In this document: positions 27,859 to 59,134 of the stretch, piece by piece
How positions within the stretch are numbered: the first letter of the stretch is position 1
Layout of the letters: each line of letters starts with the position of its first letter
From: Clostridia bacterium
GTDB taxonomy: Bacteria > Bacillota > Clostridia > Oscillospirales > CAG-272
Reading direction: 5' to 3'
Length of the DNA stretch: 64,000 bases
Assembly (NCBI GenBank): GCA_017407835.1
Contig: JAFQVV010000032.1
Coordinates: 20,353 to 84,352 of the forward strand
Notes under the pieces: generated by a model
Databases searched by the model: none
The model's input: only the letters and a program-made list of their open reading frames with translations
Told to the model about the DNA's origin: nothing
Position numbers and translations under genes: made by a program

Positions 27859-28066
27859 ATGAACACCTCGTTGGATGAAATTTTCGCCTATGCGGCAGAA
27901 CAGGGGATGGGATATACTTGGTCAGTATATGCACGGCATAGATATTTTACCATAAATTCAATAATTCCGCAAGCAAAAAGTACTCCAGGGGACGATAAAC
28001 AAGTAAAAAAATAAACGGTATATGAAGAGGTGTCTACATAAAGCAGGTTTTGCCTGATGCAAAATC

Positions 28067-28100
28067 AAAAGGAGTACGGACATTTGTTCGTACTCCTTTT
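28067..28100. terminator. Bidirectional hairpin
   Basis: AAAAGGAGTACG/CGTACTCCTTTT, a 12-bp stem with a 10-nt loop, about 185 nt downstream of the XRE-TPR gene stop. Confidence 0.6.
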
Positions 28101-28205
28101 CACATGCATTATCCTGCAAGGTCCAGTGTATTACACCTTTTAGGGGTACTGTCGGGCGGTAATAAGCCTTCCTTTGCACAAGGGAGCCTTTGATTTGTGC
28201 GCCCC

Positions 28206-28216
28206 GAAAGTCCATC
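28206..28216 (+). repeat. Left copy of the 11-bp direct repeat GAAAGTCCATC flanking the low-GC islet
   Basis: An identical 11-mer occurs at 31097-31107 in the same orientation. Both are followed within 20 nt by TTTTTTCT. Confidence 0.5.
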
Positions 28217-28283
28217 TTTTTTCTCGCAAGCACTGCTTTTGAGGACACAAAAGCGAAGCCCCGCACGAGACTGGGCAATAAAA

Positions 28284-29042
28284 TTATTTTAGAAATTCCT
28301 TGATGATTTCCAAATTCTTCGACGCTTTCTGTGTTGAATAAGGGAACATTTCCGTTTCTTTTAAAATACTTTCATTAGCAAAATATTCAAGACACTCTTG
28401 AATTGCTGTCGCATACATTCGAATGTTATTTTGAAGAATCTCTGCTAACTCTTTTCCACTCAAAACGTTGCTCCTGCCAAGATTATAATCACGGCAAACC
28501 TCAAACGAGGGGAGCATGTCGATATATGTTTTGGCAGTCCGCACGTCCCCAAGGGTATAATAACAATATGATAAATCTCGAATAGTCTTAAACAAAAGCT
28601 CGGAATTTTTAGAAATATTCAAAATGCGGCGGTAAATATTGATTGCTTCCTGTTCATGCTCGGGATGTTGTTTAATTGTACCTCTCAAACTCCAAGCCAA
28701 CCAATACAAAATATCACAACTTGACGGATATTGAATCAAGGCATTGCGAAGCAGAATAACTGAATCGTCAAATTTATTCTCATTACAAAGGGATTGTGCT
28801 TTTTGGATGGTTTCGTCAATATCTTTCTCCTGTTTTGTTATGTCCACTCCCAAAAGGTAATCTGTAGAAACCTTGAAAATATTTGCTATAATGGGCAACA
28901 TTTCAATGTCAGGATACGAAGTTCCACATTCCCACTTGCTGACTGCTTGAGAAGTAATGCCGAGCATTTCCGCAATTTGTTCTTGTGTTAATTCTTGCAG
29001 TTTGCGAAGTTCTTTGAAATTATTAGAAAAACAATTATCCAT
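28284..29042 (-). CDS. XRE-family HTH regulator with C-terminal TPR-like helical repeat domain
   Basis: LRKLQELTQEQIAEMLGITSQAVSKWECGTSYP is an HTH_3 motif; the C-terminal 180 aa are helical-repeat-like. ATG at 29042 follows GGAGG. Local GC is about 33-40%. Confidence 0.7.
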   Translation of the reverse strand: MDNCFSNNFKELRKLQELTQEQIAEMLGITSQAVSKWECGTSYPDIEMLPIIANIFKVSTDYLLGVDITKQEKDIDETIQKAQSLCNENKFDDSVILLRNALIQYPSSCDILYWLAWSLRGTIKQHPEHEQEAINIYRRILNISKNSELLFKTIRDLSYCYYTLGDVRTAKTYIDMLPSFEVCRDYNLGRSNVLSGKELAEILQNNIRMYATAIQECLEYFANESILKETEMFPYSTQKASKNLEIIKEFLK

Positions 29043-29232
29043 AAAAGACCTCCAAAAATTATTTTTTGAACCGGTTCTGATTATATTATAACACCATTTT
29101 ATTAAAAGTCCAGATACAATCATTTGGATTTATTACAACTGACGGTTGGGTCTTCAAAAAAGAATAAAGCAGCATTTTACAGTTTCATTGCAAAATACTG
29201 CTTTATCGCAGGTGCGCCAAGGGCACTCGTTT

Positions 29233-30090
29233 TTATATCTTTTTTAATAAAAAGTGATAAAAGTCTTCGGCGTATATTGATTTGGGCTGCCTTTTGTGAA
29301 GCTCTATAATTAAATCTCTTTGGCATATAGGGTTTGAAATGGGGAGAAGGGTCAGATTTTTGTTCTGCAGCTTGCCCCACGAATATTCAGGCCAAAATGC
29401 AATCCCCGCACCCATACTGATGATGTTTTGCACGGCTATGGGAGAATCCGATTCAAAGATGATTTTCGGGTAAAATCCTGCGATGGAACAGAATTTATTG
29501 CATATTGCACCGAATAAACGGGTGCTTGAAAGCATAATAAAGCTTTCATTTCTTACGGTGCTCAATTCAATGGATTGTGCTTCGGCGTATTTTGAATCCT
29601 TGGGAACGGCGAGATAGATGTTTTCTTTTTTTACGCAGCGATGCAAATATGGTTTGGAATTGTCGGTATTAAGTCCATTGGTTGAGATCAGAATGTCGCA
29701 GTCGCATTTTAACTCATTCTGCTCAAAATCAAAGACAACATCGGGATTGTCTTTCCTGTAATCCATAATCGTATTGATGACAAAGGATGAAGCTGCCAAA
29801 ATATTCAGCTTCACGGTTTTTGTCACCGTTTCTTTTAATTGCTGCATCTCGATGGCGAGATTGTCAAATTCGGGCAATAACAGATCAAGCCGCTGTTTTA
29901 AGGTTTTGCCGAACTCGGTCAGGATTACTTTTCGTCCTTGGCGCTGAAAGAGAGGGATTCCAAGCTCGTTTTCCAGCGAATGTATGGCTTGTGTTAACGA
30001 TGGCTGTGAAATGTGTAAAATTTGCGCGGCGTTTGAAATGTGTTCGAGTTGTGCGGTCGTGTAAAAATATTTTAGCTTTTGGATATCCAT
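29233..30090 (-). CDS. LysR-family transcriptional regulator
   Basis: MDIQKLKYFYTTAQLEHISNAAQILHISQPSLTQAIHSLENELGIPLFQRQGRK is a canonical LysR HTH. Divergent from the 30199 gene. Confidence 0.85.
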   Translation of the reverse strand: MDIQKLKYFYTTAQLEHISNAAQILHISQPSLTQAIHSLENELGIPLFQRQGRKVILTEFGKTLKQRLDLLLPEFDNLAIEMQQLKETVTKTVKLNILAASSFVINTIMDYRKDNPDVVFDFEQNELKCDCDILISTNGLNTDNSKPYLHRCVKKENIYLAVPKDSKYAEAQSIELSTVRNESFIMLSSTRLFGAICNKFCSIAGFYPKIIFESDSPIAVQNIISMGAGIAFWPEYSWGKLQNKNLTLLPISNPICQRDLIIELHKRQPKSIYAEDFYHFLLKKI

Positions 30091-30198
30091 AAGCCCTCCA
30101 ATTGATAGGATTCTCCTATTGATTTCATCGATATTATATATTTTACTTTTGATTTTGTCAAGTGTATAATATAATCAAGAACAGATAGGGAGGCATTG

Positions 30199-30501
30199 AT
30201 GATGCAAATCTTCGAATTTATTATGCTCATATGCTTTGGGATATCCTGGCCGATCTCGGTATATAAAAGCATACGATCCAAATCCACAAAAGGGAAAAGC
30301 GCGGTGTTTATCATTGCGATTATTATCGGGTATATCTCAGGGATCATCGGCAAGATTGTCAATCATCAATTGACCTATGTTGTGGTGCTGTATTGTGTGA
30401 ATTTAATCGTCGTATCCATCGATCTCGGTTTGTACTTTTTTAACACCAAGCACGAAAAAACTGCTCAATATCCCCAAAAAACGACAGGAGATATGTCATG
30501 A
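30199..30501 (+). CDS. Small 3-TM membrane protein, PQ-loop/SemiSWEET-like
   Basis: WPISVYKSIRSKSTKGKS resembles the PQ-loop motif (PQxxxxxKxKSxxGxS); about 100 aa with 3 hydrophobic helices. RBS GGGAGG. Confidence 0.45.
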   Translation: MMQIFEFIMLICFGISWPISVYKSIRSKSTKGKSAVFIIAIIIGYISGIIGKIVNHQLTYVVVLYCVNLIVVSIDLGLYFFNTKHEKTAQYPQKTTGDMS

Positions 30502-31052
30502 AAGAGAATGTACGCACACAAGCCAACGCGATGAAGGGAATCAACGATATTACCATGAAGGGTGAGATCGTGGTATTTGGATCTACCTATATGTCGAGCT
30601 TTCCGCTCTATGAGCTCTTTAACAAATGTATGTTTGAAAACGCTGTGTACAACCGCAGTATCGAGGGCTTGACCGTGAAGGAGGCGTTGGAGATCGTTCG
30701 AGATTGCGTGATTGAGATTCATCCGAGTAAGATATTTTTAGCGCTGGGAGAGGAGGACGAAAATGATCCGGATGTGATGAACGAATACACCGCCCTCGTT
30801 TCCGAACTTCGCTCACAGCTGCCCGAGTGTAAACTTTATTTGATTGCCTTGACAGGTGCGGGAATGTATGTTGAGCGTTTTAACCGAGGGATTATGCAGC
30901 TTTGCGATGGGAAAACAATAAAATATATCGATTTTATCTCCAAGCGAACGTCAGAGATGGCATTGTATCGAGCAAGATTTAAACAATTAAGCTGTTTTTT
31001 TCGCGACAGACCGTTAACCATGAGTGAGGCACTTGTGATGGCGGATATTTGA
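30498..31052 (+). CDS. SGNH/GDSL-hydrolase-like protein with degenerate catalytic blocks
   Basis: VVFGSTYM (block I-like), NRSIEGLT (block II-like) and LALGEEDEN (block III, GxND changed to GEED); no DxxH block V seen. ATGA overlap with the upstream gene. Confidence 0.4.
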   Translation: MKENVRTQANAMKGINDITMKGEIVVFGSTYMSSFPLYELFNKCMFENAVYNRSIEGLTVKEALEIVRDCVIEIHPSKIFLALGEEDENDPDVMNEYTALVSELRSQLPECKLYLIALTGAGMYVERFNRGIMQLCDGKTIKYIDFISKRTSEMALYRARFKQLSCFFRDRPLTMSEALVMADI

Positions 31053-31096
31053 TCTTCATATGAGATTCACGCAAAATTGGGAGATGCTTTCGTATG

Positions 31097-31107
31097 GAAA
31101 GTCCATC
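31097..31107 (+). repeat. Right copy of the 11-bp direct repeat GAAAGTCCATC
   Basis: Identical to 28206-28216. Lies at the transition from about 40% GC to about 60% GC. Confidence 0.5.
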
Positions 31108-36202: not shown

Positions 36203-36278
36203 TGGAGCTGGTGATGTGACTCGAACACACGACCTGCTGATTACGAATCAGCTGCACTACCGACTGTGCTACACCAGC
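36203..36278 (-). tRNA. tRNA-Thr (anticodon CGU), CCA encoded
   Basis: Manual cloverleaf. Acceptor GCTGGTG/CACCAGC. D stem GCAC/GTGC. Anticodon stem GCTGA/TCAGC with loop TTCGTAA. T arm GTGTG-TTCGAGT-CACAT. Discriminator T plus CCA; 76 nt. Confidence 0.9.
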
Positions 36279-50706: not shown

Positions 50707-51480
50707 TTATGCCGATCGCTTCCCGTGCCCCATGCGGCGCAGGACAATGGTCAGCACACCGCCGCCGATCATCATGATTACACCGATGGTGATGATCAGG
50801 TTGGGGATGATCATCAGAGCCGAGCCGAAACCGGATGAAACAGTGGCGGTTGACGGAAGGGAGGCAGTGGGCACACTTCCATAAAAATCTGTATAAATCT
50901 GGTCCAACATTTCATCCGGCAGGTCAGAGACGGGATTTCCATTTCCGTCGTGGATGAGGATTGTCTCGGACGGGATGCCGAAAAATCCGTCTGACACCTC
51001 ACCCCAGAAAGCAGACTCCATTTGGGTTGCGCTGTCAATGGCCATCCCGAACATCAGCCGTCCCGCGACGCCGATCCCGGTGAAGAGGACGCCGATCAGC
51101 AAAATATAGACCCCCGCCAGCCACCCCCAACGGCGCAGGAAGCGGGCGATCAGTCCGGGGGCGGAGTCGATCCAACCCGGGGCGGCGTAATAATTTGTCT
51201 GCGCTGTGCGATTTGGCTCACTGTTCAGCGTTTGCGCCTGTGTGGCCGATTCTTTCTGTTCGGGCTGCGGTTGAGGATCACCCAGTGTGTCATCGAGCAG
51301 CCAATCGGTTGTGACCGAGAAGAGACGGGCAAGCGCCAGAAGCTTTGCCGGCTCAGGCACGGCATCCCCGCACTCCCATTTGGAGACGGCCTGACGGGAA
51401 ACACCCACTTGTTCAGCCAATGTCTCCTGCGACAGCCCCGCACGGCGGCGGCAGGCGATGATTTTTTCGTTGAGTTGCAT
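50707..51480 (-). CDS. Membrane-tethered XRE-family HTH regulator (paralogue 2)
   Basis: LSQETLAEQVGVSRQAVSKWECGDAVPEP HTH and two TM helices flanking an approximately 75-aa loop. ATG at 51480 follows AGAGGAGG. Confidence 0.75.
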   Translation of the reverse strand: MQLNEKIIACRRRAGLSQETLAEQVGVSRQAVSKWECGDAVPEPAKLLALARLFSVTTDWLLDDTLGDPQPQPEQKESATQAQTLNSEPNRTAQTNYYAAPGWIDSAPGLIARFLRRWGWLAGVYILLIGVLFTGIGVAGRLMFGMAIDSATQMESAFWGEVSDGFFGIPSETILIHDGNGNPVSDLPDEMLDQIYTDFYGSVPTASLPSTATVSSGFGSALMIIPNLIITIGVIMMIGGGVLTIVLRRMGHGKRSA

Positions 51481-51587
51481 AGACGTAACCTCCTCTGATT
51501 TGGTGATCACAGTATAGCAGGAAGGGGGGGCTTTTTACCACCATCTCGGGCTTGAATTTTCGCAACCACAGGTTGCAGAGGGGGAAT

Positions 51588-53571: not shown

Positions 53572-53614
53572 GAGAGAAAAGCGGGATGCCGTGCACTTGG
53601 CGCGGCACCCCGCT
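53572..53614 (-). terminator. Intrinsic terminator of the blaI-blaR1-like operon
   Basis: 12-bp stem (one G-U pair) AGCGGGGUGCCG/CGGCAUCCCGCU followed by UUUUCUCUC on the minus strand. Confidence 0.7.
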
Positions 53615-53630
53615 CGGGACAGTGATGAAT

Positions 53631-56600
53631 TTACGGTGTATATGTGCGATAAGTGCCGACGATGCGGTCGGCCGTGGAGAGTACAAAGTCAAAGCTCTCG
53701 CCCGGGCACACGGCGAAGGCCGAGGCAGTGTCCCCTTCACAGAGGTAGTAGACAATCCAATCGGCCGTGTGATTCGTACTCTCTTTTATGGTGTAGATGG
53801 CACGACAGAGGGAGACACCGTTTACCTCCATCATTTTGCTTTCCTTGATGGTGATGGCGAAGGGGGAGCATCCCATGCTTTGCCAGAAGGCATTACCGTT
53901 TTCCAGCATATACGCAGCAAGCGTTGCGGGATCCTTGGGCAGGGCATCGGTGTAGATGCGCCCGATGTTGTTGCGCACATAGGAGGAATACATCTGGGAG
54001 GTGTAGGTGCTCTGCTCGGGGACGGAAACGGTTTGAATCTCGCCCTTCACACCGAAGTAGCGCCAGCCGTCGCAGGGACCGAATCGCTCATCCTCAGCGT
54101 TATAGCGTACGGGATTCTCGCCGGCAAAGTCGGGGGGCATCTGTTCTGGGGTCAGGCGAAGGAAATACAGGTCAAGCTCATGCGCCGAGGGGGAGCCGCC
54201 CAGGGCCGCTTTGGTCTTGGCATAGGCACCCGGTGTGCAGATTGCCGCCGTGTCCAAGGGAAGCTGTCGGCTCTGTACAATCGACTTCAGGGTTTCCTCG
54301 GGAATGCTAAGCCGCTCGGCCACCTCCACAATGCTCCAGTATTGGAGCCGGTTGACAGAGAAATGTGCACCGCCTGCCAGCGCACCCAGACTGCGGTCTT
54401 TTTCGGTTACCCATGTGTTGAGGGCATCAAGATTGTGCTCGGTCAGATATTCCACAATTGCTTTTTTAGCCAACCAAAGCTGGCGTTCTGTTTGCAGCGT
54501 GGCCAGCCGTTCGTTGGCCGTGGCGTAGTAGGCTTCAATCTCGGCATCACTTCCCCCGAAGAGGAGGTCAAGATTGTAATCTCCGCCGTAGAAGAGGGAG
54601 GGATCATGCACCAAGAGCTCTTCAAACTGTGCGCGGGTGATGCCGAAGTCCCGAATCAGCTGGACAATGTTGGGACCGCAGGCTGTCTTGTCAATCTGTG
54701 TCTGCAGCCAGCCGTTGAATTTGTTTTCTCCCACCAAGTCGATCAATGATCCGGGGAAGGCGTGGTAGGCCGAGTAATAATATCCCGGGGAGAGGGCGAT
54801 ATAATGTGCGCAGTAGCCATTCTCGGTGGGGGTCTGCAGTGTGTTTTCCTCCGGCTCGGCGGTAGTGGCAGGGGGCGAGACAGTGACGGGAGGGTTGGTG
54901 GTCTCGGTGCTCGCTGCCGATGCGGGGAGGGAAAAGCTCACCACGCAGGGGAAACGGGGCGATACGGTGCAGGGGCCCAGACGGGTGTCCCCGAAGGGCT
55001 CGTTGTCGCTGAAGCGGGGATAGGAGAACATCCCCCCCGCCGCGCCGCTCAGACTGCTGATGACGTAGGAGGAACTGTTATCGTCCCGGATGGCGATGGT
55101 GATGCCGTTTCCGTCGGATTTGGTGACCTGCCAGACGTGGTAGTGGGAATCCCCCGCGGCGGCGTAGCTGAACATGAGGGTATGGTTGGCGAGGGTCAGG
55201 GCGGTGAAGCCGTGATCATCGCCATATTTGCGCACGAGATAGCTGATGACGGTTTTGTATTCTGCGGCGAGCTTCGTGCGGACAGCGTCGGTGAGCAGAT
55301 CATGGAGTTTCTCTCCGGCGGAAAGAGTCACTTTACCGAAGTCGGTGGTCAGGGTGTAGTGGTACATGGGGGCGGGGAGGGAGAAGATGAGAGGACAGGG
55401 GAAGCAGCTTCTTTGATTGCTGATATAGAGAACAGAGTCCCCGGCGCTCAAGGGGAGGATGCCCGAGTCGAGACAGCGAATGTCGGCGATGATATAGTCG
55501 GCGCCCCCCGGCTTCATGGCCATGAGGATGCCGGCACCGCCGGTCTTCTCGGCTGACCAGACACTGGTGTAGTCTCCAAACACCGCGGTGGTCAGGGTGA
55601 GAGTTGTGAAGCCGTGGTTCTGCCCATAGGTGCGGGTGAGGTAGTTGGTGAGGGAGGCATACTCGGCGGCCACGCGGGATTTGGTGTCTTCATCCATCAG
55701 CTCCGAAACATCCTGTGCGGAGGAATAAGCGGGAAGGTTGATCTGGGGCTGGCCCTCAGGGGAAAGCTCGATCTGTACCGTTGCCACCCCCGTTAGCTTG
55801 ACCTCGTACTGCTCATCTTTGATAAACCATACGTTTTGATTGAAGAGGGGCGTGGGATCCTCGGCGGCCGAGGCGGTGTAATCGGTCCCGCCCAGCACGG
55901 TACCCTTGTCGCCGTTGATGATCTCATACCACGCCGCGGAAAGCGCACGGTAGGGGGAGACCGCCTTGGCCAGGTACATCTGCCCGCCGCCTGCCTGCAT
56001 GGCGATGAGGATCGACTCGTAACTGCTGTACTGGATCTCCCAGACGCTGTCCATGCGCTTGCCGTCGATGACGATCTGCTCGGGGCGGAGAGTGAACTGC
56101 CCGTATTTGTGATCCTCGCCGTACAGCTTTTTCAGCACATAATCAATGGCGGTGTACTCACTGCCAAGGCGGGACACGATGTCCGGGGAAAAATCGGGAT
56201 CGGTGAGGGGAGTCCAGCAATGGAGGGTGGGGAGACTTTGATGGATGGTATAATAATAGCTGGCTTTCAGGGATCGTGTGAAGAGATAGCTCTCGGGATC
56301 CATGGAATCGCCGTTTGCGTTGGAGAGGGTGAAGCAGAGGCAGGGCCCCATAGCATGCCCCGTTTCGCCTACCGCACCGATCAGATCGGAGCGATCCACC
56401 TGCTGGCCTACCTGTACAGCGATTGCCTGCAGATGATGATAGCCGGTGACATAGCCGTTTCCGTGATCGATGCGGACATAGTTGCCCCAACCAAGCTCGG
56501 CATCGTAGCCAACAGCCGAGACGATGCCGGGAGCAGCGGCATAGACTCCCGTCCCCGTCGCTGCGGCGTAATCCACGCCACGGTGGAATTGCTGATCTCC

Positions 56601-58160
56601 ATTGGCATCGGTGTAGAATCCGAAGGGAAGAGAGATGTAATAGGTGCCGTCGATGAGGGGAACGGTGAGACTCAAGACGGTGGGAGAGCTGGGTTCTCCG
56701 GTGGTCTCACTGCCCGCGGTGATAGGATCGATGGGCAGACCGGGCCCGGTAATGGTGGGGTCGGTCGTGACAGAATCAGAGGGAATGCTCTCACCCTGCC
56801 GCTCGGCCTCTTCCTCAAGGGTGCGCACGTTCAGCGTACCGTTAAGGCCGCCGGTAATGGTCCACTTGCCGTCGGCATAGGCGAAGGTGATATCGGCCCA
56901 GTAGGGGAGCTTGGAGGAGACGATACTCTCGGCGCAGAGGGCCGAGAGTGTGGCGGTGTCGCCGTCAAAGGTGACGTAGACCTCCATGGGATCGGTGGCA
57001 AGGCCGACCCAGTAGGCGGCGAGGATATCCCGATCTTCGAGAAGTGCTTCTTTCTTTGCCAGAGCGATGATCTCCTCCTCGGCTTTCTCGAGGTCGTAGC
57101 TGTCCTCGCGGCAAGAGACAAGGCCACCGCAGATTGCGGCGATGATCAGTGCCAGTGCAACCAGCCATGCGCCCGTGCGCTTGGCAGTGGTATCCAGAAT
57201 GTTAGCAAAGCGAGCCTTGAGGGTCTTGGCCGATGCGTGGAACTGGGTGTTCAGCCCCGCCGAGGGGGAAGAGATCCCCTCCCGGGCGACCGTCAGCATG
57301 GCCTCGCCGTAGGTTTTGCGGGAGACATTGCCCGAGCGGAAGACGGCGTCGTCGCAGGATTGTTCCATCTCGATCTCCTGCTGTTTCTTCGCCATCCAGA
57401 CCAGGGGATTGAAGAAATGCAGGGCAGAGGAGAGGATGCCCAGCAGCTTCCACCACAGGTCACCTCGGCGGCAATGGATCAGCTCGTGCCGCAGAATGGC
57501 ATCCAGCTCCTCATCGGTGTAATCCCCGTGGGGGAGCAGGATCTCAGGCTTGAACAGTCCCCGCAGCAGGGGAGAGCTGACCTCGGGGCAGAGCCAGAGT
57601 GTGACGCCGGCGGCGGGACCGCGGGTGATTTTCAGCGATGCCTTTGCCCGTTCCAGGGCGGCGGTTAGCCGCGCATCCTCGGCGGGCATCTTCCATCTCC
57701 GCAGCCGCGCGGCTCCGGAGAAGCAGAGCACCGCCTGCCGCAGAAGCAGGATCACCACGCACACCGCCCACACCGGCACCACCACATCAAGGGGATCCAT
57801 GGCAATAGGCAGGGGTTCGGAGGTGACATATTCGGTGTCGGAGATGCCGTCGGTGAGGTAAGGAAGGTTGACATCCACGGATACCGGCGGGACGGGGGTG
57901 AGGGCAATGTCTGTCAGCCCCGGATTGGGCTCGACGATCTGCTCTGCCAAGGGGGACTCGGTAGCGGTGGGCAGATCAATGACGGGGGTGGGGAGAGAAA
58001 TGTTGAAGGGAATGGCCAGCCGCAGGAGAAGAATGCACCAGATGGCATAGCGGCAGCCTGCAGAGAAGCGCCGACCGAAGCGGGAGAAGAGCAGGGCCGC
58101 AAACAAAAGCGGCGTCATGGCCAGAGTAATCTCGGCAATGGTCAGGAACAGGGTGCGCAT
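53631..58160 (-). CDS. BlaR1/MecR1-type M56 membrane metalloprotease fused to a LytM/M23-like domain, three tandem repeats and an unknown C-terminal region (1,509 aa)
   Basis: Four TM helices with the HELIH zinc motif (57474-57488) in the loop before TM4. M23-like segment FHRGVDY...GNYVRIDHGNGYVTGYHHL...GETGHAMGPCLCF. Repeats begin SRLGSEYTAIDYVLKKLYGEDHKYG, SRVAAEYASLTNYLTRTYGQNHGF and TKLAAEYKTVISYLVRKYGDDHGF. ATG at 58160 is 7 nt after AAAGGAG. Confidence 0.8.
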   Translation of the reverse strand: MRTLFLTIAEITLAMTPLLFAALLFSRFGRRFSAGCRYAIWCILLLRLAIPFNISLPTPVIDLPTATESPLAEQIVEPNPGLTDIALTPVPPVSVDVNLPYLTDGISDTEYVTSEPLPIAMDPLDVVVPVWAVCVVILLLRQAVLCFSGAARLRRWKMPAEDARLTAALERAKASLKITRGPAAGVTLWLCPEVSSPLLRGLFKPEILLPHGDYTDEELDAILRHELIHCRRGDLWWKLLGILSSALHFFNPLVWMAKKQQEIEMEQSCDDAVFRSGNVSRKTYGEAMLTVAREGISSPSAGLNTQFHASAKTLKARFANILDTTAKRTGAWLVALALIIAAICGGLVSCREDSYDLEKAEEEIIALAKKEALLEDRDILAAYWVGLATDPMEVYVTFDGDTATLSALCAESIVSSKLPYWADITFAYADGKWTITGGLNGTLNVRTLEEEAERQGESIPSDSVTTDPTITGPGLPIDPITAGSETTGEPSSPTVLSLTVPLIDGTYYISLPFGFYTDANGDQQFHRGVDYAAATGTGVYAAAPGIVSAVGYDAELGWGNYVRIDHGNGYVTGYHHLQAIAVQVGQQVDRSDLIGAVGETGHAMGPCLCFTLSNANGDSMDPESYLFTRSLKASYYYTIHQSLPTLHCWTPLTDPDFSPDIVSRLGSEYTAIDYVLKKLYGEDHKYGQFTLRPEQIVIDGKRMDSVWEIQYSSYESILIAMQAGGGQMYLAKAVSPYRALSAAWYEIINGDKGTVLGGTDYTASAAEDPTPLFNQNVWFIKDEQYEVKLTGVATVQIELSPEGQPQINLPAYSSAQDVSELMDEDTKSRVAAEYASLTNYLTRTYGQNHGFTTLTLTTAVFGDYTSVWSAEKTGGAGILMAMKPGGADYIIADIRCLDSGILPLSAGDSVLYISNQRSCFPCPLIFSLPAPMYHYTLTTDFGKVTLSAGEKLHDLLTDAVRTKLAAEYKTVISYLVRKYGDDHGFTALTLANHTLMFSYAAAGDSHYHVWQVTKSDGNGITIAIRDDNSSSYVISSLSGAAGGMFSYPRFSDNEPFGDTRLGPCTVSPRFPCVVSFSLPASAASTETTNPPVTVSPPATTAEPEENTLQTPTENGYCAHYIALSPGYYYSAYHAFPGSLIDLVGENKFNGWLQTQIDKTACGPNIVQLIRDFGITRAQFEELLVHDPSLFYGGDYNLDLLFGGSDAEIEAYYATANERLATLQTERQLWLAKKAIVEYLTEHNLDALNTWVTEKDRSLGALAGGAHFSVNRLQYWSIVEVAERLSIPEETLKSIVQSRQLPLDTAAICTPGAYAKTKAALGGSPSAHELDLYFLRLTPEQMPPDFAGENPVRYNAEDERFGPCDGWRYFGVKGEIQTVSVPEQSTYTSQMYSSYVRNNIGRIYTDALPKDPATLAAYMLENGNAFWQSMGCSPFAITIKESKMMEVNGVSLCRAIYTIKESTNHTADWIVYYLCEGDTASAFAVCPGESFDFVLSTADRIVGTYRTYTP

Positions 58161-58162
58161 GA

Positions 58163-58549
58163 TCATTCTCCTTTCGCTTGACTCAGGATGGCGGAGATCT
58201 CGTCCAGATCGTCGGCGGAGATGCCGTTGCATTCCACCAAAGCAGCCACCAGGGATTTCACCGAGCCGCCGTGCATCCGTTCAAGAAAACTGCGCGTCTC
58301 TCCGACGCGGTAGGCCTCTTCACTGACGGCGGGGGCGTAGTAATGGAAGCGTTTTTCGCAGGAGAGGGTGACAAAGCCCTTCTCGTGCAGGCGAGTCAGC
58401 AGCACCTGGATGGTGGACAGGCTCCACTCCCGCTTGCCGTGGAGTGCCTCCAGCAGCTGGGATGGGCGGCGGGGTTCTCCGGCCTGCCAAAGTGCTTGCA
58501 TCACGTCCAGCTCTGCATCGGGCAGACGGGTGAATTGGGTGGGGTGCAT
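58163..58549 (-). CDS. BlaI/MecI/CopY-family transcriptional repressor
   Basis: LPDAELDVMQALWQAGEPRRPSQLLEAL...WSLSTIQVLLTRLHEKGFV...YYAPAVSEEAY is a winged-helix Penicillinase_R pattern. ATG at 58549 is 7 nt after GGAGG. Confidence 0.85.
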   Translation of the reverse strand: MHPTQFTRLPDAELDVMQALWQAGEPRRPSQLLEALHGKREWSLSTIQVLLTRLHEKGFVTLSCEKRFHYYAPAVSEEAYRVGETRSFLERMHGGSVKSLVAALVECNGISADDLDEISAILSQAKGE

Positions 58550-58574
58550 ATGCATACCTCCTTTGTTTGAAATT

Positions 58575-58592
58575 CAATGACGTTTGTCTGTG
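58575..58592. promoter_or_regulatory. Operator candidate 2 (downstream of the TSS) for the BlaI-like repressor
   Basis: CAATGACGTTTGTCTGTG matches 14/18 positions of the box at 58611-58628. Core GACGTTTGTC resembles the 4-2-4 TACAnnTGTA layout. Confidence 0.5.
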
Positions 58593-58597
58593 AACTA

Positions 58598-58626
58598 AGT
58601 ATAGCACACTCAACGACATTTGTCAA
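58598..58626 (-). promoter_or_regulatory. Promoter of the blaI-blaR1-like operon
   Basis: Minus strand TTGACA (58626-58621), 17-nt spacer, TGcTATACT (58603-58598). Confidence 0.7.
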
Positions 58627-58769: not shown

Positions 58770-58798
58770 TTGACAAATCCCTCCTGCTCTGATATAAT
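58770..58798 (+). promoter_or_regulatory. Promoter of the 58832 gene
   Basis: TTGACA, 17-nt spacer, TGaTATAAT. Preceded by the inverted repeat AAACATT-TAAAG-AATGTTT (58740-58758). Confidence 0.65.
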
Positions 58799-58831
58799 CA
58801 AAGCAAAGATCAAATGCAAGGAGGAGTAGAT

Positions 58832-59095
58832 ATGACGATAATTGTGTACTATGCGGGGCTGGTCCTGATGGTTTTGGTGGATGTTCTCGTAGCTGCTTGG
58901 TGCATAGCGGCCTCCCGCAGGGAAGCCGAAACACCGTTTGTCTGTCCCAACTGCGGCGAGGTTTTCTATGCCAAGTGGTATCGGCTTTGGTGGGGGCGGA
59001 GATTGAGCCTCACGATGCAGGGAAAAGCAAAGCTGAAGTGCCCCCGCTGCGGGAAGACAGATCTGTGCAGATGGATGCGCGAGGGTGCAGAATAA
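58832..59095 (+). CDS. Small membrane protein with zinc ribbon
   Basis: One N-terminal TM helix, then CPNCG...CPRCG. ATG at 58832 follows GGAGGAG. Confidence 0.6.
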   Translation: MTIIVYYAGLVLMVLVDVLVAAWCIAASRREAETPFVCPNCGEVFYAKWYRLWWGRRLSLTMQGKAKLKCPRCGKTDLCRWMREGAE

Positions 59096-59134
59096 GGGAA
59101 AAGGGTGTCACGCCAACGGCGTGACACCCTCGTG

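Follow-up and report, generated by a model that had tools for sequence, protein, structure and literature searches.

A BlaI/M56-type operon of uncultured Clostridia whose giant sensor carries a predicted degenerate LytM domain, tandem repeats and modules found in small lipoproteins

BlaIR-type regulatory systems, typified by BlaR1/BlaI and MecR1/MecI of Staphylococcus aureus and Bacillus licheniformis, have long been taken as antibiotic-resistance switches. A survey of ~15,000 M56 proteins by Kurtz et al. (2026) distinguished 254 architectures, in which ~6% of the proteins carried a transpeptidase domain, 96% had a BlaI neighbour and ~94% lacked a beta-lactam sensor domain, the signal being unknown for almost all of the latter (PMC13492132). 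These non-canonical BlaIR systems, which include CenIR of Clostridioides difficile with its regulon of ~12 genes (PMC13492132) as well as the BlaIR pairs of M. tuberculosis and M. abscessus and PvmSR of P. aeruginosa (bioRxiv 10.64898/2026.08.03.742534), are suspected of a role in the cell envelope. Among the nine M56 architectures with at least 100 entries is M56-M23, none characterised (PMC13492132), and a 2022 review of M23 peptidases also mentioned M23-M56 fusions of unexplained role (PMC9662197). Here, we analysed a 64,000-nucleotide stretch of a Clostridia bacterium genome (assembly GCA_017407835.1, contig JAFQVV010000032.1, positions 20,353 to 84,352; hereafter the window) that carries a two-gene operon encoding a BlaI/MecI-family repressor and a 1,509-residue M56 sensor protease with a giant extracytoplasmic part.

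We consider this operon to be probably a chromosomal and autoregulated regulated-proteolysis switch of the BlaI/BlaR1 type that senses an envelope cue and not a beta-lactam. It shares with the canonical Bla and Mec systems the repressor-then-sensor gene order, a four-helix M56 membrane domain with the HEXXH motif in a cytoplasmic loop, a winged-helix repressor alignable to MecI over its full length, palindromic xACA-N2-TGTx operators overlapping the promoter and, presumably, autoregulation. It differs from them in having no penicillin-binding sensor, an ectodomain of ~1,150 instead of ~250 amino acids (aa), no linked beta-lactamase or PBP2a gene, and Ala-Leu in place of the Asn-Phe cleavage site of the repressor. 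With CenIR and other non-canonical BlaIR pairs it has in common an M56 sensor without a transpeptidase domain and an adjacent BlaI-like gene, which are the features of that class (PMC13492132). The tail of CenR is short (~125 aa) and mostly disordered, whereas that of the window sensor is a giant multi-domain chain; similarly, the regulon and phenotype of CenIR are known, whereas the present system is known from sequence alone. The locus is therefore not a new kind of system; it belongs, as an unusual case, to a functionally unexplained class that has been recognised only recently. The original prediction had stated that no characterised system with this architecture was known to it, which is true; nevertheless, the M56-M23 combination was already catalogued and BlaIR systems without a beta-lactam sensor were already established (PMC13492132; PMC9662197).

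Both genes lie on the minus strand, and the sensor starts 2 nt past the repressor stop codon. The 128-aa repressor and 1,509-aa open reading frame (ORF) proposed earlier were recovered in this arrangement, although from an upstream ATG the repressor ORF would span 58163-58555 and encode 130 aa; the second ATG, at 58549 and 7 nt past AAAGGAGG, has better Shine-Dalgarno spacing than the ATG at 58555. The best sensor start is 58160, with GGAG 7 nt before it. In the window, the pair is flanked by dxs, a CPBP-type protease gene, a small ORF and rpsI/rplM, and no beta-lactamase or penicillin-binding protein (PBP; PBP2a) target gene was found linked to it among these neighbours.

The membrane part of the sensor matched Peptidase_M56 (PF05569) in Pfam at aa 12-321, with an E-value of 8.6e-43 and 147 bits against a cut-off of 31. 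Hydropathy placed transmembrane (TM) helices at about aa 3-26, 38-58, 125-150 and 328-352, with HELIH in the third loop (L3). The first loop, with four Lys/Arg and no acidic residue, would face inwards and the second, with 11 Asp/Glu and no Lys/Arg, outwards, a charge distribution that fits the BlaR1 topology. Furthermore, H225, E226, H229, E266 and D270 were invariant in an alignment of 12 family members, in agreement with a four-TM M56 gluzincin that combines HEXXH with a downstream Glu. Pfam, hydropathy, charge bias and the alignment to PDB 8exp thus agree with the BlaR1/MecR1 layout first read from the sequence, namely three TM helices, a cytoplasmic loop with an intact HELIH motif and TM4. 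In contrast to BlaR1 and MecR1, no transpeptidase domain was detected in the sensor by Pfam (PF00905), and the NCBIfam model blaR1_generic reached 102.8 bits against a cut-off of 400 while covering only model positions 18-353 of 585; sensor_MecR1 scored 26.6 against 1200. Given the missing domain and these low scores, the protein does not qualify as a beta-lactam sensor of the BlaR1/MecR1 kind, in line with the initial view that its ectodomain is not penicillin-binding.

The repressor matched Penicillinase_R (PF03965) at aa 13-126 with 96 bits against a cut-off of 22.6 (E=2.3e-27) and displays the architecture of an N-terminal winged helix followed by a C-terminal helical dimerisation domain. 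All three Pfam families anticipated for the pair, Penicillinase_R, Peptidase_M56 and Peptidase_M23, were therefore matched. In NCBIfam, the best name for the repressor was BlaI_of_BCL (77.8 against a cut-off of 180), followed by CopY_TcrY (TIGR02698; 69.2 against 121.95). Its C-terminus, which reads ...VECNGISADDLDEISAILSQAKGE, contains a single Cys, and the CxCxxxxCxC hook of CopY was not found there, so that assignment to the CopY type fails.

BlaI and MecI operators carry TACA/TGTA. The promoter of the present operon likewise bears predicted operators of the xACA-N2-TGTx type, with outer bases G/C (GACA/TGTC), unlike those of BlaI and MecI. The two GACAAAYGTC boxes are the only exact matches within the 64 kb window, and within the 118 kb examined (the window plus four orthologous loci, L001-L004) such boxes occur solely at the operon's own promoter. 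Both boxes and their 36-bp spacing recur in L001, L003 and L004, and L002 has one box plus an extra copy upstream. Box 1 of L004 is the reverse complement, which supports a palindromic GACA-WW-TGTC site. Moreover, promoter and boxes persist across orthologous loci whose sensors are only 38-80% identical. In further support of a BlaI-type switch, BlaI-like genes in 13 genomes of several phyla adjoin this dual-box arrangement. Matches with one mismatch occurred in the window at chance level (9 found, 7.4 expected) and thus revealed no further regulon members there. At the other end, a hairpin with a short U-rich tract closes the operon ahead of dxs. The consensus promoter, the two repressor-box candidates and the terminator that had been proposed are accordingly all in place, the boxes being conserved across the orthologous loci as predicted operators, and the description of the operon as a self-contained module holds.

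In the MAG (metagenome-assembled genome) of family member P0009, a second pair of BlaI-like (39% identical) and M56 (30% identical) genes lies on another contig (L152, JAZODX010000133.1, as opposed to L003/L116, JAZODX010000152.1) under the same GACATTTGTC dual box, and cross-talk between these paralogous BlaIR systems is possible.

The extracytoplasmic part contains a Peptidase_M23 domain (Pfam, aa 524-622, 1.2e-26). Compared with the solved M23 peptidase 6jmx, it retains the HxxxD zinc motif as H526-R-G-V-D530; the HxH motif, which supplies the catalytic and a zinc-binding His, is replaced, GPHLHF reading GPCLCF. Across the 12 aligned family members, only one of the six M23 motif positions is invariant (H566): H526 changes to Q, N, C or L, D530 to T, S, R or L, and H576 to N, R or G, while the HxH positions elsewhere in the family read HLG, -LY, T-H or gaps. 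HxxxD is lost in seven of the eight more distant members, and in P0199, a further M56 protein of the same family, Pfam no longer detects an M23 domain. Weak NCBIfam matches were obtained to ActS, DipM, SpoIIQ, EnvC and NlpD, and P0005-8 and P0012 possess a coiled coil and extra copies of the domain, an EnvC-like layout. With the M23 fold kept and its catalytic and zinc residues unconserved, the domain is best described as a predicted degenerate LytM (dLytM) and not an intact one; the replacement of HxH by CxC is unusual. The earlier assignment of a LytM/M23-like domain is hence correct as to the domain, and does not extend to a working peptidase. Taken together, the invariant M56 residues and the drifting M23 residues suggest that selection keeps the cytoplasm-facing protease and not the wall-facing 'peptidase'.

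Degenerate LytM domains such as those of EnvC, NlpD and SpoIIQ are binding or activating modules, and EnvC, NlpD, ActS, DipM and SpoIIQ work by binding hydrolases or partner proteins (PMC9662197). The window domain resembles these in retaining the M23 fold while having lost catalytic or zinc residues. They are, however, free periplasmic, lipoprotein or forespore factors, whereas the dLytM domain described here is covalently joined to a signalling protease. Degeneration would make the M23 part of at least this branch of the M56-M23 class a binding device and not an enzyme.

The combination of M56, M23-like domain and repeats was found in only ~13 protein clusters of 823-1,511 aa. Wherever context was available, a Penicillinase_R gene lay directly upstream and dxs a few kb downstream, with rpsI upstream in L004 as in the window, and no conserved neighbouring target gene was seen in the orthologous loci; in 80 genomes with more distant dxs genes, the blaI-M56 pair was absent next to dxs. 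The hosts, about a dozen uncultured gut Clostridia, are represented by MAGs classed as Clostridia, Eubacteriales or Oscillospiraceae, with a source named for two (roe deer colon and caecum). Of the named relatives, Oscillospiraceae bacterium SIG693 comes closest to the window (85-92% nucleotide identity). Identity between the window and L001-L004 was 75-95% for the repressor and 75-84% for dxs, against 54-89% for M56, 37-78% for dLytM, 27-83% for repeat 1 and 28-80% for repeat 2. Family members have also gained or lost the juxtamembrane domain, the coiled coil, extra dLytM copies, repeat 3 and the C-terminal modules C1 and C2. The switch core thus appears conserved and the ectodomain fast-evolving and modular; a repressor as conserved as dxs together with a rapidly diverging ectodomain fits a surface-exposed sensing part.

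Table 1. Coordinates of the operon and its features within the window.
Feature	Position	Strand	Remarks
BlaI/MecI-family repressor gene	58163..58549	-	128 aa; Pfam Penicillinase_R 2.3e-27; aligned to MecI 1okr residues 8-121
Sensor-protease gene	53631..58160	-	1,509 aa, stop codon included; full-length orthologues 76-80% identical
M56 module (TM1-TM3, cytoplasmic loop L3, TM4), aa 1-352	57105..58160	-	Pfam M56, BlaR1 8exp alignment, hydropathy and charge bias
HELIH zinc motif, aa 225-229	57474..57488	-	aligned to HEYAH of S. aureus BlaR1 (PDB 8exp)
Small juxtamembrane domain, aa 353-455	56796..57104	-	no Pfam match
Pro/Thr/Ser-rich linker 1, aa 456-497	56670..56795	-	60% P+T+S+E
Predicted degenerate LytM/M23 domain, aa 498-628	56277..56669	-	Pfam M23, PDB alignment, motif-site table
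C607-L608-C609 replacing M23 HxH	56334..56342	-	'gpClCf' aligned with 'gpHlHf' of PDB 6jmx
Repeat 1, aa 645-812	55725..56228	-	22-aa helix and beta-sheet, plus extra beta sub-domain
Repeat 2, aa 813-945	55326..55724	-	pairwise alignment and model
Repeat 3, aa 946-1078	54927..55325	-	confined to the four closest orthologues
Pro/Thr-rich linker 2, aa 1079-1114	54819..54926	-	67% P+T+S+E
Module C1, all-helical, aa 1115-1340	54141..54818	-	relatives are ~130 small, mostly lipobox-bearing proteins
Module C2, alpha/beta, aa 1341-1509	53634..54140	-	PsbP/DcrB/DUF1795-like fold
Sigma-70-type promoter: TTGACA, 17-nt spacer, TATACT, TG before -10	58598..58626	-	11/12 matches; conserved in five orthologous loci
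Predicted operator box 1, GACAAATGTC, palindromic half-sites GACA/TGTC	58615..58624	-	overlaps -35
Predicted operator box 2, GACAAACGTC	58579..58588	-	downstream of -10, 36 bp from box 1
Terminator hairpin, then UUCUCUCC	53579..53615	-	-28.9 kcal/mol, z = -5.2

The remainder of the ectodomain consists of modules not covered by Pfam: a search of six sensor sub-regions at E<=10 returned nothing but a chance Sigma70_r4 match (Table 1). The small domain next to the membrane is present in P0002-8 and P0012 and absent in P0009-11. Both Pro/Thr linkers noted at the outset were confirmed by their composition, and their length suffices to extend into a Gram-positive wall or to cross it. The three tandem repeats were likewise substantiated, with pairwise identities of 28-31% and local alignment scores at z = 11-28 over shuffles; they emerged when the excised units were compared pair by pair, whereas self-BLASTP with the full-length protein had reported none. 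AlphaFold2, supplied with 12 family sequences, modelled the unit as a 22-residue helix followed by a four- to six-stranded sheet (mean predicted local distance difference test, pLDDT, 69; cores 70-90). When 5.8 billion proteins were searched with a profile, the repeats turned up in just one further M56 protein of the family, P0199, and their presumed novelty is upheld in that they appear to occur only in this M56 protein family. When the three-repeat model was compared with the PDB by Foldseek, only meaningless matches were returned (best probability 0.21, TM-score ~0.1), and the repeat-unit profile found no match among PDB sequences. A PepSY-like identity for the repeats was considered and dropped: their likeness to PepSY is limited to the helix-plus-sheet pattern, no PF03413 match was obtained at E<=10, Foldseek gave no match and the profile came up empty in the PDB.

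The last ~395 aa had been described as ~400 residues with nothing recognisable, which proved wrong: an exhaustive HMMER search of 1.84 billion representatives returned 152 matches falling into two separate modules, C1 and C2, that are common to small Firmicutes lipoproteins. The C1 domain (~aa 1115-1300) occurs once or twice per protein in ~130 small proteins, the majority of which bear a lipoprotein signal. It also forms the C-terminal end of P0129, a second giant M56 protein. Relatives of C2 comprise ~20 small lipoproteins and the ectodomain of the zf-HC2 anti-sigma factor P0053. The presence of C2 on that anti-sigma factor and of C1 on a giant M56 protein indicates that both modules are reused in transmembrane signalling proteins. 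No Pfam family covered C1 or C2, either in the window sub-regions or in a 48-member subset of 149 relatives.

Structure prediction and Foldseek, as suggested originally for the ectodomain, succeeded in part, yielding a fold for C2 and no match for the repeats or C1, since the top Foldseek matches of the combined C1+C2 model all fell on C2. This AlphaFold2 model had a mean pLDDT of 77, the C2 core lying mostly at 83-97 and the N-terminal edge of C2 at ~60. The structures matching C2 were PsbP/CyanoP, DcrB, EagT6/PA94 (DUF1795), MTC28, LpqN and Apa, with probabilities of 0.97-1.0, target-normalised TM-scores of 0.45-0.54 and modest E-values of 3e-3 to 4e-2. As modelled, C2 forms the alpha-beta-alpha sandwich of the PsbP/Mog1-like fold, a fold that many envelope lipoproteins share. 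C2 is alike in structure to DcrB, LpqN, MTC28, EagT6 and PA94, and its own sequence relatives are lipoproteins, but no sequence similarity to those five was detectable. As the functions of PsbP/Mog1-fold proteins are diverse, no ligand can be deduced for C2.

Two further observations concern the C-terminal modules. P0129 (1,459 aa) combines its C-terminal C1 with a weak match to IseA, a DL-endopeptidase inhibitor, and Clostridia may repeatedly have equipped giant M56 sensors with modules related to cell-wall hydrolases. A public assembly in ENA (P0001) contains a copy of the sensor that is 100% identical but, owing to a frame change near aa 1257, only 1,280 aa long. The copy thus lacks the last part of C1 and the whole of C2, through either a natural truncation or a fault in the assembly.

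A Ruthenibacterium MAG provides a compact counterpart (L176), in which the gene for a 536-aa M56-M23 protein with intact HxxxD and HLH precedes a distinct gene for a coiled-coil M23 protein. The two loci share a BlaI-like gene followed by an M56 protein with M23 after TM4, and a dual GACAWWYGTC box 36 bp apart. They differ in that the window protein has a degenerate M23 domain plus repeats, C1 and C2, and the M56 identity is only ~25%. By this comparison, the window protein appears to be a derived, giant elaboration of the M56-M23 class with a degenerate M23 domain.

By analogy with BlaR1/MecR1 and CenIR, a repressor dimer on the two boxes, which overlap the -35 element and the region of transcription start at the promoter of the operon itself, would keep both genes silent. 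Something happening outside the membrane, at the ~1,150-aa ectodomain, would be relayed through TM4 and switch on the cytoplasm-facing M56 protease, which in turn would cleave or inactivate the repressor. Derepression of the operon would then constitute positive feedback, and any other box-bearing promoters in the genome would respond likewise. In this scheme, the ectodomain would be a string of binding-type modules rather than enzymes, with C1 and C2 borrowed from lipoproteins. Because dLytM domains of other proteins attach to peptidoglycan or to cell-wall hydrolases, the most economical guess, and the least certain step of the scheme, is that a wall-associated partner provides the cue. This partner might be peptidoglycan itself, or else a hydrolase or another envelope protein that docks on dLytM or the repeats; peptidoglycan sensing, as first proposed, is a reasonable and plausible extrapolation from the dLytM domain. 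It is also conceivable, if rather unlikely, that the ectodomain acts as a wall-spanning 'hydrolase-state' receptor: dLytM and the repeats would dock a hydrolase or naked peptidoglycan and report through TM4 to M56, so that the BlaIR switch would provide homeostatic control of autolysin activity or of wall integrity, and the CxC-bearing LytM domain would be a latch responsive to zinc or redox state. If true, the M56-M23 class would thereby gain its first assigned mechanism.

Several observations weigh against an envelope-sensing proteolytic switch. The scissile Asn101-Phe102 of MecI/BlaI aligns to Ala-Leu ('slvAAlvec' versus 'slvlNFvek'), so that cleavage at that site cannot be assumed and the cleavage site may differ. 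H526, D530, H576 and two Cys remain in the window M23 domain, which makes residual zinc binding, or even activity, possible. No fold is assignable to the repeats or C1, whether by Foldseek or by the repeat-unit profile against the PDB, and the organism belongs to an uncultured MAG lineage. When 185,579 genomes were scanned, the dual box was present at no fewer than 119 loci, 13 of which adjoin BlaI-like genes (Clostridia, Fimbriimonadales, Lentisphaerota and Verrucomicrobiales), and ~48 of which represent a GACATATGTC class upstream of unrelated small genes; given this class in an unrelated regulon, the dual GACAWWTGTC box is not BlaI-specific and not diagnostic for BlaI. Finally, no target gene besides the operon was found within the sequence examined, and the output may be the sensor alone.

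This last point makes a loop in which the sensor is also the effector a serious rival. The ectodomain would then be a wall scaffold or regulator, for instance an EnvC-like partner of amidases or endopeptidases, with BlaI and M56 only tuning its abundance and the operon as the sole regulon. The confinement of the boxes to the operon's promoter and the lack of a conserved neighbouring target gene speak for such a loop, as do the EnvC-like coiled coil and extra dLytM copies of P0005-8 and P0012 and the coiled-coil M23 gene that follows the short system of L176. We nonetheless regard it as unlikely: the sequence covered amounts to 64 kb of the window genome and 10-18 kb of the others, leaving room for box-bearing promoters elsewhere, and CenIR, the closest studied non-canonical system, has ~12 genes in its regulon (PMC13492132). 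The protein could alternatively be a membrane-anchored peptidoglycan DD-metalloendopeptidase with M56 serving mainly as an anchor, as suggested by the strong M23 similarity in Pfam and NCBIfam, by the NCBI name of homologue P0005 (DD-metalloendopeptidase) and by HxxxD and the YxHL histidine kept in the window species. The CLC in place of HxH, the loss of HxxxD, H576 and HxH in varied combinations among orthologues down to the undetectable domain of P0199, and an invariant M56 active site with a repressor gene always alongside render this very unlikely. A canonical beta-lactam sensor of the BlaR1/MecR1 kind, or a copper sensor of the CopY type, is more improbable still: blaR1_generic, BlaI_of_BCL and CopY_TcrY head the NCBIfam names, but at scores far below their cut-offs, and neither a transpeptidase domain nor an adjacent beta-lactamase or PBP gene nor the CopY hook accompanies them, the repressor C-terminus having one Cys. 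On these grounds (no transpeptidase domain, no Cys hook, CLC for HxH), the beta-lactam sensor, the CopY-type copper repressor and the active peptidoglycan hydrolase were rejected.

The locus offers a well-delimited natural example of the M56-M23 class, with a conserved promoter/operator pair and an invariant protease core. Its ectodomain modules vary between close species (823 to 1,511 aa), providing a ready comparative and domain-swap series for what the modules sense, and the degeneration of LytM corrects the database name 'DD-metalloendopeptidase'. This value is limited by the hosts being uncultured gut Clostridia.

Additional observations were made on dual boxes and on the surroundings of the operon. 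Approximately 48 genomes (Firmicutes, Elusimicrobia, Synergistetes and others, among L085-L203; for example L093, L095, L119, L169 and L194) have a promoter in which two TTGACATATGTCA palindromes are spaced by 36 bp. The genes under it are small and start MPRxDGTGPxGxGPxTGRG (DUF5320-like), or are DUF134-like or NifX-like, and these promoters seem to represent an unrelated regulon that is widely distributed and whose operator is conserved to a striking degree.

Diverging from the operon (window 58770-59130) is the promoter of a 93-aa ORF at 58814-59095 (+), which encodes one TM helix and two CxxC pairs. This promoter is a perfect consensus (TTGACA-17-TATAAT with TG), a strong 13-bp terminator lies at 59102-59130, and no operator box was found near the ORF. 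The ORF has ~82% nucleotide identity in Oscillospiraceae SIG693 (L190) and is absent in L001 and L004, where a LytTR-domain gene pair is found instead. Directly downstream of dxs, at 50707-51510 (-), a membrane-anchored XRE/HTH_3 protein of 267 aa has an N-terminal helix-turn-helix (HTH) and C-terminal TM segments; its gene is syntenic in the L002 and L004 loci, sometimes with two to three HTH_3 genes in a row. A single tRNA gene at 36206-36278 (-) was the sole Rfam match in the window at the gathering threshold. At 28000-31100, the guanine-plus-cytosine content falls to 0.39 (window, ~0.54). This islet, probably acquired horizontally, carries genes for two regulators, one of the HTH_3 type whose C-terminal domain is long and one of the LysR type, and for a small membrane protein and a protein of 184 aa.

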